DNA of 63,495 nt, filler included, from an uncultured Thermoplasmatales archaeon (GTDB lineage Archaea > Thermoplasmatota > E2 > DHVEG-1): NCBI GenBank assembly GCA_964517155.1. It is 5 parts of 5 records of this genome, joined end to end, with 100 filler letters (N's around TTAATTAATTAA, not from the genome) between each part and the next. Parts side by side here need not be neighbours in the genome. Positions count along the whole stretch, not along the records: positions 36,967 to 56,865 come from CAZFAZ010000077.1; 4 more parts are not named here. One strand, 5' to 3'. The translations under genes and the position numbers were made by a program. Of this stretch, positions 19,963 to 42,435 are shown in pieces. Each line of letters starts with the position of its first letter. Position 1 is the first letter of the stretch. The notes under the pieces are model-generated. The model was given only the letters and a program-made list of their open reading frames with translations. It made no database searches and had not been told where the DNA came from.

Positions 19963-22900
19963 TTGTTCTTATTTATAATTATAGTAATGGGGAAGAAAAA
20001 AATAATGCATATCGGCTTATATAAAAACAAGCATATTCTGAGAATAATATTATTGTTATTCATAATCAATTTTACACTAGCCCCAGTTGTTGGAAGCAAT
20101 CTTATAGAATCTTCAACTGTTATATACGTTGATGATAATAAAGATGCAGATTATACCAGCATTCAAGATGCAATTGACAACGCAGATGATGGCGATACAA
20201 TTTATGTTTTTAATGGAACCTATAAAGAACAAATCATAATCGATAAAAAAATTAATTTAATCGGTGAAGATGAAGATTCAACTGTTATTACTGGTGATTT
20301 TAGAAAGTTTTTAGTTTCCATTAATGCAGATGATGTATCGATTTCTAATTTTAATATAATCGGGGAAAAATTTCTTCATGTACTTTCTAGCAGCATCGTT
20401 GTTTCTTCAGATAACATAAAAATTACTAACTGTATTATTAATCATTCAAATATTGGTATTTTAATAAAAGGATCCGATGCAAATATATCGAATAACAAAA
20501 TCTTGTATTGCAATATTGGTTTGTTTTTTGCCTTAAATGTGAATGACAATATTGTTGAATACAATAATATTTCAGATAATTTTTTTGGTATATGGTCATT
20601 TTATAGTATTATTTCCTCAGGAAATATTGCCCGGGAGAACCTTTTTTTAAAAAATAATATTGGAGTAAATCTTGTATTTTTAACGAGAGGTTTTACAGTT
20701 TATCATAATAATTTTGTTGAAAATAATGTTCATGCAAAGGGATCAGGTCAAAACAAATGGAATGATAATTATCCCTCTAGTGGTAACTACTGGGAAGGTT
20801 ACAGTGGAGAAGATTACTATCATGGAATAAATCAAGATAAGCCTGGCAGTGATGGCATAATAGATGATGCTTACAGTCAGGGTCATGTTTTGGATGAGTA
20901 TCCTTTTAAAAACAATTATGGCTGGGAACAGAACAATCCGCCTTTTAAGCCTTATAACCCTATGCCATTTAATGGCAATAGTTCTGTTGATATTATAGTT
21001 TCTCTTTTATGGGACGGAGGAGACCCTGAAGGAGATCTTGTCAATTATGATGTTTATTTTGGAACAAATCCTACATCTTTGTCAAAGGTTTCAGATAATC
21101 AGACTGATTTGAGTTTTACTACTGGTGAGCTTGAATATGAAACTGATTATTTCTGGCAGATAGTTGCTTGGGATGAACATGGTGAGAATATAAAAGGAGA
21201 TGTTTGGAAGTTTACAACAAGACAAGAAGAAAATAATAATCCAGTCGCATTTGATGATTATTTTATTATATCTGAAGATTCTTCTGATAATCAATTCAAT
21301 GTTTTGGAAAATGATACAGATATAGATGGAGATTTGCTTTTAATTGATAATACAGGTAGTGCCTTGCATGGAACTGTAACATTTGATGAAGATTATATTT
21401 ATTACTCTCCAGATGAAAACTATTGTGGTAGCGATAGTTTTGAATACACTGTATCTGACAAAGAAGGTGGTTTTGATACAGCTACTGTTTATGTTACAGT
21501 CGAGTGTATTAATGATGCTCCAGTTGTACAGAACATTCCTAATCAAAATAAACAAGAAGGAGAGGAGTTTTCTTCTTTTGATTTAGATAATTATGTAACT
21601 GATATTGATGACTTAGACAATGAAATTACCTGGACTTATAGCGGCAATTTAGAACTTGATGTTTCAATTGATACAAATCATGTTGTTACAGTCAGCAAAC
21701 CTAATTTAGAGTGGGTTGGAGCGGAAACAATAAGGTTTACTGCAACTGATTCCGGTGGTCTTTTTAGTTTTGATGATGCAACGTTTACATCTTATGATGT
21801 AAATCATGATCCTGTTGCAAATGATGATATAAGATCTGTTTCTGAGGATTCAGATAATAACCTTTTTGATGTTTTAGAAAATGATTATGACCCTGATGGA
21901 GACAGTATAATAATTACTTCAGCAGGTTCTGCCCTGCATGGATCTGTAAGCTTTGATGAAGATTATATTTATTATACTCCAAATGAAAATTACTGCGGAA
22001 GTGATAGTATTTTGTATACTATCTCAGATGGAAACGGCGGGATTGATACTGCAACAATAGCTGTTACAGTTAGTTGTATAAATGATCCACCTGTTGTAAG
22101 TGATATTCCTGATCAGACAATTAACCAAGGAGCTTCTTTTGCAACAATTAATCTAAATAATTATGTTTATGATATCGAAGACTCAGACAGTGAGATTACA
22201 TGGACATATAGTGGGAATAATGATTTGCAAGTATCGATTAGTACAAGCAAAATTGCAACAATCACTCAACCATCTTTAACATGGACAGGTCAGGAGACAA
22301 TAACATTTACTGCTACAGACACAGAAGGTTTGTCTGATTCAGATAATGTACTTTTTAAGATAAATCCTACAAATAATCCCCCTGTCGCAAATAATGATTT
22401 TTATGAAATAAATGAGGATAAAACATTATATATAAATGCTATAGAGGGCGTGCTTTCTAATGATTCCGATGCAGATAGTGATCTGTTAACTTGTTTGTTA
22501 GATGATGATGTTTCAGATGGAACGCTAAATCTATATGCTAATGGTTCGTTTAGATATATTCCTTTGAGTAATTTTAATGGGGAAGATAGTTTTAGATACA
22601 AAGTATCAGATGGAAAAGGTGGATTTGATACCGCAGTTGTTAAAATAAAAGTTTTTGCTGTAAATGATGCACCTGAAGTACCATACAGTCCAAACCCTGC
22701 GAATAACTTGGGTTCTGTTAGTTTATCTAAAACTCTTAGCTGGAGTTGTTCTGATCCTGATGGTGATACAATTACATATTCTATCTATTTTGGTAAAACT
22801 TCTTCAAACATTGATTTTAAAAAGAATCAGACGAGCAAGACCTATAACCCAGGCTTGCTTGATAAAAACACAAATTATTACTGGAAGATTATAGCTAAAG

Positions 22901-37138: not shown

Positions 37139-37237
37139 ATGAAACGTAGTTCAAGAGTCTGGAAAAAAAGACATAAAATGCGATGGAAATGGCGAAAGAA
37201 ACGAATGCGACGTGAAAAAAGAGCAAGACGGAAATAA
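37139..37237 (+). CDS. rpl41e: Ribosomal protein L41e (eS32), 32 aa, absent from the ORF track
   Basis: MKRSSRVWKKRHKMRWKWRKKRMRREKRARRK; GAGG SD upstream. Confidence 0.9.
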   Translation: MKRSSRVWKKRHKMRWKWRKKRMRREKRARRK

Positions 37238-37253
37238 CGCTAACTATTTACTT

Positions 37254-37392
37254 GGGGGTATGGTGTAACCCGGCATCATTGTGGGCTCCAGTTAGGAATG
37301 ATTACAAGAGGGTCATCTGAACTGTGATGAGTAACGGGAGCGATGACCAAAGAAGAGCCCCGCCGATCTGGGTTCAAATCCCAGTACCCCCA
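37254..37392 (+). tRNA. tRNA-Trp(CCA) with a 66-nt intron (about 37292..37357)
   Basis: Acceptor GGGGGTA/TACCCCC; GTGGG-CTCCAG|intron|C-CCCGC; T-arm CTGGG-TTCAAAT-CCCAG. Confidence 0.93.
37292..37357 (+). ncRNA. Intron-encoded box C/D 2'-O-methylation guide RNA
   Basis: Box C ATGATTA 37298, D' CTGA 37317, C' GTGATGA 37324, D ATGA 37343; two 12-nt guides. Confidence 0.88.
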
Positions 37393-37634: not shown

Positions 37635-39074
37635 TCATCTTTTCCAAGTAAACAATTGATTCTTTGTTGCAGCTACTTCATCCAATCGTTTTGTAGGTGT
37701 ATTAACAGGTGCATTTTTAACAACATCTGGTGTTTCATCTGCAATTTTTATAAGCGTTTGTATGTATTTATCTAAATCTTTTTTTGATTCAGATTCAGTA
37801 GGCTCAATCATAAGTGCTTCTTTTACAATAAGTGGGAAATAAACTGTTGGAGGATGCAAACCATTATCCAATAATCTTTTTGCAATATCCATCGCACGGA
37901 TATCTTTTTCTTGTTTTAGTTTTTCGCAACTTAAAACAAATTCATGTTTTCTCAAAGTTTTAAATGGCATTTCATATTTACCGCTATCAAGTATTTTCGT
38001 TTTCATATAATTAGAGTTAAGAACCGCAATTTCTGAGGCCTGACGAAGACCGTTTCCACCCATCATAAGAATATATACATATGCTTTTAGAAGAACTGAA
38101 AAATTACCATAAAAACTTTTTATTTTACCAATAGACTCAGGTGAATCATAATCAAAAATATATTCTCCAGAATTAGTTTTACAAATACGCGGTATAGGTA
38201 AAAACTTTTCAAGTTTCATTTTAACTCCAACAGGACCGCTACCTGGACCTCCGCCACCATGCGGGGTAGAAAATGTTTTATGAAGATTAAGATGAACTAT
38301 ATCAAAGCCCATATCTCCAGGTCGTGCCTTACCCATAATAGCATTCATGTTTGCTCCATCGTAATATAATAGTGCTCCTGCTTTATGAACAAGTTTTTGA
38401 ATTTCAAGGATATCTGACTCAAAGATTCCAAGAGTATTAGGATTTGTAAGCATGAAACAAGCGGTTTTTTCAGAAAGTGTTTTTTCAAGTGCATCTAAAT
38501 CTACAGTACCTTGGCTTGTTGAAGGTATCTCAATTGTTTTATATCCCGCCATTGAAGCACTAGCAGGATTTGTTCCATGCGCAGTATCAGGAAGTATTAC
38601 CTCATCTCTTTGTTCATCTTCTCTATTTTTATGGTATGCTCTTGCCAAAAGAAGTCCTAAAAATTCGCCATGTGCACCAGCTGCAGGCTGCAAGCAAAAA
38701 TAATCCATACCTGCAATTTCACAAAGCATTCTTTCTAATTCAAAAAGTATCTGAAGATTTCCTTGAATTGTTGAAATATCCTGATAAGGATGAGTACATG
38801 CAAATTTTTCCCAAGAAGCAATTTGCTCACAAATCTTCGGATTATATTTCATAGTGCAAGAACCAAGTGGATACATTCCTGTATCAACACCAAAATTCAT
38901 CTGGCTAAGACGATGAAAATGACGAACAACCTGCGTCTCATCAAGATTAGGAATTAAGACCGTGTTTTTCTTTTCAAGGGTTTTTGGAACACCTTGGATT
39001 TTTTCAGTTTTTTCTGATTTGCAGCATACAAGTTCATTTAGTAAAGGTTCTTCGTAAACAGCAAATTTAAACAA
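37635..39074 (-). CDS. gcvPB: Glycine dehydrogenase (decarboxylating) subunit 2
   Basis: [20 protein letters not shown] and [16 protein letters not shown]. Confidence 0.97.
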
Positions 39075-39076
39075 GA

Positions 39077-40420
39077 CTAGGCCACCTCCTTTAAAACAGA
39101 TATAAGTTTTTCAAAATCTTCATCTGAATGCATCTCTGTTGTACCAACAAGTAAGCAATCTTTAAGCTCTTTGAAATCTTCTCCAAGCAAGGGCCCTATC
39201 TGAACATTTTTGTTTAAAAGTTTTTTAGCAATATTTTCTGGTTTATCCTTACATTTTATAACAAATTCATTAAAATGTAAACCTGTAAATCTTAAAGAAA
39301 AACCATCTAGTTTACTAATCATCTCTGCAAGTTTTTTTGCTTTTTCAAGATTTACTCTTGCAAGTTCATAAATGCCTTTACCACCAAGCCATGAAAGATG
39401 AACCGCTGCATTAAGCGAGCATAGTCCTTCATTTGTACAAATGTTACTGGTAGCTTTTGCCCGGCGTATATGCTGCTCACGAGTTTGCATAGCCATACAA
39501 AAACCGCGTTTACCTTCACTATCAACAGTTAAACCTATAACGCGACCCGGCATCTGACGAATATATTCTTTCTTACAAGCAAAAATACCAAGTCCACAAC
39601 CACCAAAATCCATAGGATTACCAAAAACACGACCTTCACCAATGACAATATCTGCTCCATATTCACCAGGTGATTTTACAACACCAAGAGATAAAGGATC
39701 AACTCCTACAACAAACAAAGAACCTGCATCTTTTACGATTTTGAAGATACTTTCTACTTCATCTTCAAAAACTCCAAAGAAATTTGGGTTTTCAATATAA
39801 ACACCAGCCGTGTTTTCATCAACTGTTTTTTTAAGTTCATCAATATTTATTTTACCTGTTTTTTCATCAAAACCAAGTTCTTTAACAGATACCTTTGGGC
39901 CAAGAGTATAGTTTTTCAAAACAGATTTCTTCTCCAATGAAATATTTCTGGGTATGATAAAAGTGCTTCTTTTTGTAACACGTGTACACATTAATGCTGC
40001 TTCAGAAAGACCTGTAACACCATCATATAAAGAACAATTGGAGGCATCCATGCCTGTAATCTCTGCAATCATGCTTTGATATTCAAACATAGCCTGTAAA
40101 AAGCCTTGACTTGCTTCTGCTTGATAAGGAGTGTACGCAGTATAAAATTCTGCACGTGATGTAATCGATTTAACAACAGGTGGAATATAATGATTTTTAA
40201 CTCCTGCACCTAAAAAACATAAAAATTCATTACATGATTTATTTTTTGATGCAATATCTCTTAGTTTTTTATCTGTTTGTTGTTGAGATATGCCTTCTGG
40301 TAAATCTAACTTTTTAAATTTTATTTTTTCAGGTATATCTGAGAATAATTCATCGATTTTTTTAAGACCAATGTCTCTTAGCATTTCATCTTTGATTTCT
40401 GAGTTTGGTACAAATTTCAT
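39077..40420 (-). CDS. gcvPA: Glycine dehydrogenase (decarboxylating) subunit 1
   Basis: [15 protein letters not shown] and [19 protein letters not shown]. Confidence 0.97.
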
Positions 40421-40502
40421 AAAAACTCCTCAGTCAGGTATTAATAATATGTTAAAGAATCTTATTGTAAACTTTAAAATCATAATTGTTGTTTCACAAT
40501 AT

Positions 40503-41162
40503 ATGCCCAATTACAGTTTTAGTGAAGAATCAGACAAAAAGCTTGCTGTCGGTAAACTTGTTTGTCTTGCAAGAACTTATCATAAACATGCAAAAGAAAT
40601 GAATACAAAAGTTACAGAAACCCCTCTTCTTTTTTTAAAACCTGCAAGTTCTGTTATTTTTACAGGTAATTCTATTGTTATGCCAAGTATTTCTAAAAGT
40701 GTTCATCACGAAGTAGAGCTATGTATTATTATCTCTAAAAAATGCAGTAAAGTAAAAAGAGAAGATGCAATGAACTATGTTTTAGGATACTGTTTGGGTT
40801 TAGATATAACTGCTCGTGACATTCAAACAATTGCTAAGAAAAACGGTTGGCCATGGGGAATTGCAAAAGGATTTGATACATTTGCACCTATAAGCAGTGT
40901 TGTTTTAAAAGACAAAATAAAAAATCCTCAGAATCTTGATATCTGCCTTAAAGTAAATGGAGAGGTTCGTCAGAGTTCAAATACGAAATATATGATTTAT
41001 ACAATTGAAGAGATAATTGAGTTTATATCTAGTATCATGACACTTGAACCAGGTGATATGATTATGACTGGAACCCCTGAGGGTGTTGCAGAAATTAAAA
41101 AAGGTGACAAATTAGAAGCAAATCTTGGAGATATATGCTTTTTAAACATTAATGTAAAATGA
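40503..41162 (+). CDS. Fumarylacetoacetate hydrolase family protein
   Basis: FLKP.SS, HHEVEL, DITARD.Q, AKGFDTF and TGTPEGV; start at MPNYSF. Confidence 0.92.
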   Translation: MPNYSFSEESDKKLAVGKLVCLARTYHKHAKEMNTKVTETPLLFLKPASSVIFTGNSIVMPSISKSVHHEVELCIIISKKCSKVKREDAMNYVLGYCLGLDITARDIQTIAKKNGWPWGIAKGFDTFAPISSVVLKDKIKNPQNLDICLKVNGEVRQSSNTKYMIYTIEEIIEFISSIMTLEPGDMIMTGTPEGVAEIKKGDKLEANLGDICFLNINVK

Positions 41163-41256
41163 AAATATTGATTTTTTTTCAAATTATATTGAAAAATATT
41201 TAAATTAAAATTTTATTGGGAATCTTACTTTTCTTTATTTGGAGGAGGCAATATTC

Positions 41257-42435
41257 ATGAAAGATGTAGTAATTGTATCTGGTGTTAGAACTGCTCAGGG
41301 AAAGTTTGCAGGTGCCTTAAAAGATTTTTCAGCACCTCAGCTTGGCAGTATTGTACTCAAAGAAGCAGTTAAAAAAGCAAGCATTAAACCAAAAGATGTT
41401 GATGAAGTAATAATGGGTTGTGTAGTTCCCGCAGGCCTTGGTCAAAACGTTGCAAGACAAGCAGCGATAGGTGCAGGTATTCCCTATGAAGCAGGTGCGC
41501 TTCATGTCGATAAAGTCTGTGGCTCCAGTCTAAAAGCAGTTGTCCTTGCAACTCAAGCAATAAAATGTGGCGATGCAGAAATTATTATTGCTGGTGGAAT
41601 GGAGAGTATGAGCAATGTACCTTATACACTTCCAAAGGCACGCTATGGATACAGAATGTTTGACGGAAAAATCGTGGATTTAATGGTAAATGATGGATTA
41701 TGGGATATATACAACGATTTTCATATGGGAATGACCGGTGAAATAATTGCTGAGCGTCATAATTTAAATCGTGAAGAAATAGATGAGTTTGCAGCAGGCA
41801 GTCATCAAAAAGCAGAACATGCAACAGAAAAAGGTTATTTCAAAGAAGAGATAATTCCAGTTGAAATTCCTCAAAAAAAAGGTGACCCAATTATTTTTAG
41901 TAAAGATGAGGGAATTAGATACGGTACAAAAGTTGAAGATCTTGCTAAACTAAAACCGTTCTTTAAAAAAGATGGAGTAGTGACAGCAGGTAATGCCTCA
42001 CAGATTACAGATGGTGCAAGCGCAACTGTCGTCATGAGCAAAGATAAAGCAAAAGAACTTGGCATAAAACCACTTGCTACAATTAAAGGATACAACACAT
42101 CAGGTGTTAAACCAGAACTAGTAATGGAAGCACCAATTCCAGGTGTTACTGACTTATTGAAAGATATGAAACTAAAAATTAATGGTATCGACCTAGTAGA
42201 ACATAATGAAGCATTTTCATCAGCAAGCCTTGCTGTGATGAAACATTTTAAAATTCCAAAGGAAAAATTCAATATTCATGGTGGAGCTGTAGCAATAGGT
42301 CATCCAATCGGAAGTAGCGGCTCAAGAATTCTAATAACCTTAATACATGCAATGAACCGTATGAATAAAAAGCGTGGACTTGCAACTATATGTCTCGGTG
42401 GAGGAAACGCAGTTTCCATGATAATTGAAAGGTAG
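41257..42435 (+). CDS. thl: Acetyl-CoA C-acetyltransferase (thiolase)
   Basis: KVCGSS, NEAF, GHPIG and CLGGG; GGAGG SD. Confidence 0.95.

Follow-up and report, generated by a model that had tools for sequence, protein, structure and literature searches.

Can a tRNA intron that guides the modification of its own host also act on the ribosome? Introns of tRNA-Trp genes are known in Haloferax volcanii and Pyrococcus (sR50) as box C/D guide RNAs that modify positions 34 and 39 of their own tRNA (PMC7994747, PMC4090602, PMC2584109 and PMC6009581). The tRNA-Trp(CCA) gene considered here lies on contig C77 of an uncultured Thermoplasmatales archaeon (assembly GCA_964517155.1; 1.59 Mb, 32% GC, 90.8% complete), within a stretch of 63,495 nucleotides, five contigs joined by spacers, that we analysed as a whole and call the window. 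An earlier note, made from the sequence alone, had proposed that the D′ guide of its intron fits helix 69 (H69) of 23S ribosomal RNA (rRNA) at C1920 instead of the host tRNA. We consider it likely that the intron is a genuine box C/D small RNA (sRNA) with mixed targets, C34 of the tRNA-Trp precursor (pre-tRNA-Trp) for the D guide and 23S C1920 for the D′ guide. The second of these predicted assignments is well supported by comparative data and by a published guide of N. equitans in the same register.

All four boxes described in the earlier note, C, D′, C′ and D, are present in the intron (Table 1), where they flank two guides of 10–12 nucleotides in a layout that a regular-expression search found at only three places in this genome. 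Of the 108 loci of the order, 101 could be parsed into an alignment, and box C is identical in 92 of them. Across the phylum, position 6 of box C and position 1 of box D read T–A in 160, G–C in 26 and C–G in 3 of 199 scored introns; the U–A swap previously read as keeping the K-turn pairing is one of these covarying states. Genes for L7Ae, Nop5 and fibrillarin are all present in this genome, on contigs C81, C27 and C19. Neither ARAGORN nor Rfam makes a call on the tRNA-Trp gene, and relaxed ARAGORN settings return only noise.

The D guide spans the exon–intron junction and places C34 at N+5, as had been claimed, but the internal G·A mismatch reported with it is not typical of the locus. G37336 in the D guide, A37349 and C38 (position 37358) are linked on a minor contig with a depth of 12.6 of roughly 170 in run X1, possibly the source, where the majority (roughly 157) reads T, T and A, and of 13.6 of roughly 180 in X2, which is perhaps the same data as X1; the minor allele makes up about 7% of the depth in these read-derived contigs. 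The majority bases are also those of the order, with T at D guide position 7 in 100 of 101 loci and A38 in 99. Whereas the window allele forms 5+4 pairs with the precursor, T at 37336 gives a perfect match of 10, and the outer helix of the apparent bulge–helix–bulge (BHB) splicing motif, read by eye, is likewise perfect only with the majority T37349 (an unconstrained fold shows no BHB). Because the minor contig carries all three bases, the D guide mismatch and part of the poor fit at position 39 come down to a minor allele or an assembly error, the three linked substitutions being either a strain variant or a systematic error. Elsewhere, one locus (L113, genome G006) has A at N+5 of the D guide, a mismatch with C34, beside an intact H69 guide.

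The D′ guide forms 11 contiguous Watson–Crick (WC) pairs with H69 and places C1920 at N+5, as the earlier note held, which is longer than the at least nine consecutive pairs covering N+5 used as a criterion for C/D guides (PMC4644070). As this organism's own 23S rRNA is not assembled, the target sequence is taken from relatives. The H69 sequence that the note had put forward proved real there: it is present in all 26 H69 matches, from 23 of 118 genomes of the order, and in 43 of 47 matches from 46 of 80 genomes of the phylum. In the 16S and 23S rRNAs of one relative (G016) this is the best site, the next-best sites reaching 7 pairs, with the one in 23S lying inside that relative's group I intron. 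A better target elsewhere, named in advance as a possible refutation, was thus not seen in these rRNAs, nor does the organism's own assembly hold another 11-base complement; the scan by register covered 16S and 23S, leaving aside other tRNAs, 5S rRNA and messenger RNAs. At least 11 pairs were reached by 2 of 1,000 shuffled guides, and by 3 of 1,000 when random flanks were placed on a fixed GGGTC core. The N. equitans guide sR20 has the same register and so anchors the numbering of C1920.

Two further features of H69 in these archaea stand on their own. Position 1915 is C instead of U in 24 of the 26 matches of the order, and the same holds for family f7; no U is left there to become the usual pseudouridine 1915. 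In 3 of the 26 order 23S loci (L031:1300-1513, L052:1295-1533 and L049, in the 23S of G016, G115 and G101) an intron sits at about U1931, a few bases past the guide target; two of the three score as Rfam group I introns, and the insert in L049 is longer, with a LAGLIDADG-like motif by eye, and falls below the Rfam cut-off.

To place the guide in evolutionary context, we compared introns across the phylum with one row per genome, 127 from the class (used here for families f1–f8; families and genera are coded labels) and 75 from other genomes; loci L151 and L349 and two duplicate genome rows were left out, and 10 of 216 loci could not be parsed. Within the 101 order loci, D′ guide positions 1–7 are nearly fixed, position 8 is A in 88, position 9 is G in 66, position 10 is A in 100, position 11 is A or G in all 101 and position 12 is free: conservation stops exactly where complementarity to H69 stops. 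Every one of the 127 class genomes has a D′ guide that binds H69 more strongly than the host tRNA (median, −17.6 against −10.0 kcal/mol), compared with 15 of the 75 others, and at least nine consecutive WC pairs are formed with H69 in 89 of the 127 and with the tRNA in none. Among alignment cells at which H69 and the tRNA carry different bases, those of class guides pair exclusively with H69 in 465 cases and exclusively with the tRNA in 16, against 108 and 184 in the rest of the phylum, these being counts over related, non-independent genomes. Guides from the rest of the phylum change together with the tRNA (GGGTTT with AAACCC, GGGTAT with ATACCC), which serves as a positive control. Three f5 genomes (L199–L201) in which tRNA C41 has become A have nevertheless kept the H69-type guide, and in G178 a C at 1926 of H69 is matched by G at guide position 11. 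The alignment that the earlier note had suggested thus supports a conserved H69-type guide in the class, and yields two-sided covariation in that single case. AT drift as the source of the guide's A residues was ruled out: A makes up only 3–36% of the neighbouring loop, and the full match is kept in high-GC families.

The host tRNA has not disappeared from the picture. With G|ACCC at position 39 of the precursor and GACCC at 1920 of H69, both sites fit the GGGTC core of the guide. With A38, the D′ guide makes five contiguous WC pairs on the precursor with C39 at N+5 (−10.0 kcal/mol, against −17.6 for H69), and in all 127 class genomes the register is kept with WC runs of 3–6, none reaching nine. 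The earlier description of a poor match to position 39 was thus overstated; the aim at C1920 stands, but 'instead of the host tRNA' goes further than these data, as a C39 register of 5–6 pairs survives and even tRNA-type guides elsewhere in the phylum have runs of only 2–8, none of nine. As judged from sequence, C39 methylation has likely been lost in the class, and weak activity there may remain. Two f31 genomes (G222 and G400) are one substitution, at position 8, short of the full H69 match. Because five bases are common to the ancestral C39 target and H69, and sit in the same N+5 register, a switch from one to the other would be easy.

The same guide also occurs outside introns, on free sRNAs of genomes whose intron is of the tRNA type. 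A motif of the guide with its D′ box matches 132 of 401 phylum genomes; among 25 matches that we fetched, 19 are free C/D sRNAs, one is a tRNA-Trp intron and five are chance matches in coding DNA, and several later matches were also due to chance. In most of these free sRNAs the D guide pairs over 10–11 bases with an intron-containing tRNA-Met precursor (pre-tRNA-Met), with C34 at N+5 in all six tested (such precursors were recovered by pattern in 15 of 20 genomes); we presume this RNA to be the orthologue of Pyrococcus sR49, going by its target and not by a sequence comparison. Its D guide motif matches a single one of 117 class genomes, by chance, against 113 of 284 others, some of them also by chance (401 and 284 include an unpublished genome, G428, with no match). 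A relaxed motif that does not depend on the tRNA-Met intron matches 7 of 129 class genomes, themselves incomplete, none with a C/D layout by eye, and no free tRNA-Met/C1920 sRNA was seen in the incomplete assembly of this organism. Among 30 genomes from outside the class, chosen because both RNAs were available, the full guide is on the free sRNA in 14, in the intron in one and on both in none; in the one with the full intron guide (G240), loss of a base has shifted the free guide out of register. One further free C/D sRNA (L231, G399) resembles the tRNA-Trp intron of family f5, with the H69 guide kept and the D guide changed, and is possibly an escaped intron copy.

A further C/D-like RNA of this genome, at C67:17428 (+), has a D guide that fits C34 of tRNA-Leu(CAA) and a D′ guide that fits 16S rRNA (10 pairs in a relative), so that mixed tRNA and rRNA guides look normal here; another, on C41 (−, about position 22269 on the reverse strand), has no clear target. 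The pre-tRNA-Met of this genome (C56:8599-8726) keeps an intron that begins unlike its counterparts beyond the class, and a guide for C34 of tRNA-Met was not found in this genome.

Full H69-type introns also occur in 4 of the 75 genomes outside the class, one in f31 and three in f34, where one genus holds both types. A scan of all genomes returned at least 120 loci, at least 88 of these tRNA-Trp genes by regular expression; those listed are mostly Thermoplasmatota, several titled DHVE2 group. Among the matches listed, three are titled Nitrososphaeria or Nitrososphaerales and combine an H69-type intron with a different tRNA body, while their relatives carry perfect tRNA-type or degenerate guides (matched in 12 of 111 genomes of that class and 15 of 17 of the family). 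The three genomes themselves are without a 23S sequence, and H69 pairing at guide positions 2–11 is found in 4 of 5 genomes of their family. This would make the Nitrososphaeria case an independent gain, a view that follows family and genus labels rather than a species tree, as do the number and direction of switches overall. Two observations on introns of these lineages may be added: several Nitrososphaeria tRNA-Trp introns (L475, L478, L479, L488, L490 and L495) have kept the C34 guide and lost recognisable C, D′ or C′ boxes, and an f34 genome (G312, L307 region) has two copies of tRNA-Trp, each with an intron, separated by some 1.8 kb (C10:116352-116492 and 118184-118324).

Could the D′ guide simply still be the ancestral C39 guide, its match to H69 a by-product of the GACCC core and A-rich drift? 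The core does give 5–6 WC pairs at C39 in register with A38, tRNA-type guides elsewhere have runs of only 2–8, A is common at positions 9–11 even in those, and positions 8 and 9 decay in the family of the window. We nevertheless hold this to be unlikely: of the 127 class genomes, 114 have A at position 8 and 90 have G at position 9, compared with 17 and 13 of the 75 others; A is kept at position 2 even though the tRNA, too, has A there in 112 of the 127; and the full match retained at high GC, the rarity of such a match with the core fixed, and the identical guide on free sRNAs of complementary distribution all speak against it. That the guide pairs with H69 without methylating it, in a chaperone or assembly role, or with pairing blocked in the cell, seems rather less probable still. 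Some small nucleolar RNAs (snoRNAs) do pair with rRNA that stays unmodified (PMC8522698), chaperone roles have been proposed for archaeal sRNAs (PMC4644070) and D′ boxes in f5 are degenerate next to an intact guide, but the N+5 position forms a WC pair with H69 in all 101 order loci beside a canonical D′ box, in the register of the guide for the verified N. equitans Cm1920 (2′-O-methylated C1920). Least probable of all, we think, is that the core is conserved because it folds back onto box D (GGUCAUC with GAUGACC) as an intramolecular switch, and not for pairing with a target. This helix is the minimum-energy fold (z −2.9), the self-complement occurs in 116 of 127 class introns against 7 of 75 others, and position 1 goes with box D in several families, being T with ATGA and G with CTGA; the helix accounts for positions 1–6 only and not for 7–11, any guide aimed at C1920 can pair with its own D box where CC comes next, and the helix is absent from the H69-type introns of Nitrososphaeria.

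Several results weigh against a working C1920 guide in this intron. In the family of the window, 35 of 90 genomes have fewer than nine contiguous WC pairs with H69, with A, T or C at position 9 in 35 and T at position 8 in 13 (the latter giving G·U with the tRNA instead), so selection on the D′ guide is weaker there than on the D guide, which is near-invariant. In one f5 genome (L292) the guide followed the tRNA at position 7, and H69 itself is nearly invariant (43 of 47 matches identical), so that two-sided covariation rests on one case. Half of the 30 genomes compared for both RNAs have neither full guide, and Cm1920 would therefore be dispensable in many relatives. In the fold of the naked intron the guide core is paired with box D (−15.3 kcal/mol). 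The 23S gene is missing from this assembly and from those of G089 and G093; two RNA runs (X15 and X16) returned only contigs of relatives at about 90–96% identity, without splice joint or ends, and are evidence neither way. Perfect pairing, moreover, does not guarantee that native rRNA is modified (PMC8522698).

A retargeted, dual-purpose intron would work as follows. L7Ae, Nop5 and fibrillarin would assemble on it, within the precursor or after BHB splicing, and L7Ae binding would have to open the fold of guide core and box D. As in other archaea, the D guide would direct 2′-O-methylation of C34 before pre-tRNA-Trp is spliced, and the D′ guide would pair in trans with H69 (1916–1926) and direct Cm1920. 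Changes at guide positions 2 and 8–11 would be what converts a tRNA guide into an rRNA guide, and the free tRNA-Met/C1920 sRNA retained by many other Thermoplasmatota has probably given way to the intron in the class. Falling a little short of probable is the wider proposal that the C1920 guide moved repeatedly, by few point changes, from that free sRNA into the tRNA-Trp intron (in the class, part of f31, some f34 and separately Nitrososphaeria), and that the intron there is the sole source of Cm1920, with C39 given up and methylation of the intersubunit bridge made dependent on the expression and processing of a tRNA-Trp co-transcribed with eL41. H69 forms bridge B2a. The link between tRNA-Trp splicing and ribosome maturation drawn in the earlier note is, for its part, hypothetical.

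Judged on sequence comparison, the retargeting appears real, class-wide and apparently unreported, with stronger comparative support than a prediction usually has. The novelty lies in the host, a tRNA intron, as Cm1920 made by an archaeal C/D guide is already known. Our literature searches found no rRNA target described for a tRNA-Trp intron in the papers covered, nor any rRNA modification data for the class; an alignment of 29 such introns (PMC2584109 supplement) and Clouet d'Orval 2001 lie outside this comparison and may bear on novelty. If correct, this would be the first tRNA intron hosting an rRNA guide, like the intronic snoRNAs of eukaryotes: a textbook self-modifying tRNA intron would have gained a target outside its host, at the very nucleotide of H69 that bacteria methylate with TlyA. 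It would also offer a natural experiment on target acquisition, in which two targets have a core of five bases in common, between one and five substitutions suffice and another sRNA passes on its role; the pattern recurs, and it spans two phyla. The tRNA-Trp intron is dispensable in H. volcanii (PMC4090602), which leaves the reason for its retention open.

The open reading frame (ORF) upstream of the gene probably encodes ribosomal protein eL41, and its linkage makes co-transcription with tRNA-Trp likely: locus and ORF are matched in 106 of 118 order genomes, in most as one stretch. The neighbours at 37635-42435 (−/+) are housekeeping genes unrelated to the intron, among them subunits of glycine cleavage P and, by eye, a thiolase.

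Table 1. Features of the tRNA-Trp locus, in window coordinates.
Feature	Position	Strand	Basis
eL41-like basic ORF, 32 amino acids, 16 nucleotides upstream of tRNA-Trp	37139..37237	+	Pfam Ribosomal_L41, E 0.026, below cut-off
tRNA-Trp(CCA) gene	37254-37392	+	sequence
Exon 1; C34 = 37288, D guide target	37254..37291	+	sequence, alignment
Intron of 66 nucleotides at 37/38, box C/D sRNA; relaxed BHB	37292..37357	+	BHB by eye
BHB central helix	37286-37289 with 37352-37355	+	one C·A mismatch, by eye
Box C, ATGATTA; its position 6 (U) pairs with position 1 (A) of box D	37298..37304	+	
D′ guide, complementary to 23S H69 1916–1926; G37312 (N+5) opposite C1920	37305..37316	+	
Box D′, CTGA	37317..37320	+	
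Box C′, GTGATGA	37324..37330	+	
D guide, pairs across exon 1/intron junction; C34 at N+5	37331..37342	+	
Box D, ATGA	37343..37346	+	
Exon 2; position 38 is 37358 (window C, majority reads A) and C39 is 37359	37358..37392	+	

Among the closest known systems is the tRNA-Trp intron of H. volcanii and Pyrococcus sR50, which shares the host gene, the intron position, the four boxes, a length of about 65 nucleotides and a junction-spanning D guide with C34 at N+5, and which in H. volcanii is reported in a review to act in trans. Its D′ guide differs: here it makes 11 pairs with 23S H69 and only five with position 39, whereas the sR50-type introns described so far modify no rRNA. Target and N+5 register are instead those of the free C1920 sRNAs, of which N. 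equitans sR20 (NeqsR20) is verified, its Cm1920 having been confirmed by mass spectrometry and RiboMeth-seq (PMC5389701), and MKAsR47, Sac-sR20 and MmasR104 have same-register guides by sequence (from M. kandleri, S. acidocaldarius and M. maripaludis; PMC4644070 supplement 1, a study that calls the origin of related guides unclear). Unlike this intron, with its partner guide on the host tRNA, those RNAs have genes of their own and a second guide for rRNA or another target. The sRNA for C34 of tRNA-Met, known as Pyrococcus sR49 and described there as exonic (PMC2584109), has in its Thermoplasmatota counterpart the same combination of a D guide for a wobble C34 and, in many genomes, a D′ guide for C1920, but is free-standing and was not found in this class. 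Bacterial TlyA, finally, makes Cm1920 at the same nucleotide of H69, which affects subunit joining (PMC12805891); TlyA is a protein-only enzyme, with only two weak matches in this genome, both below cut-off, whereas the modification predicted here would be guided by RNA.
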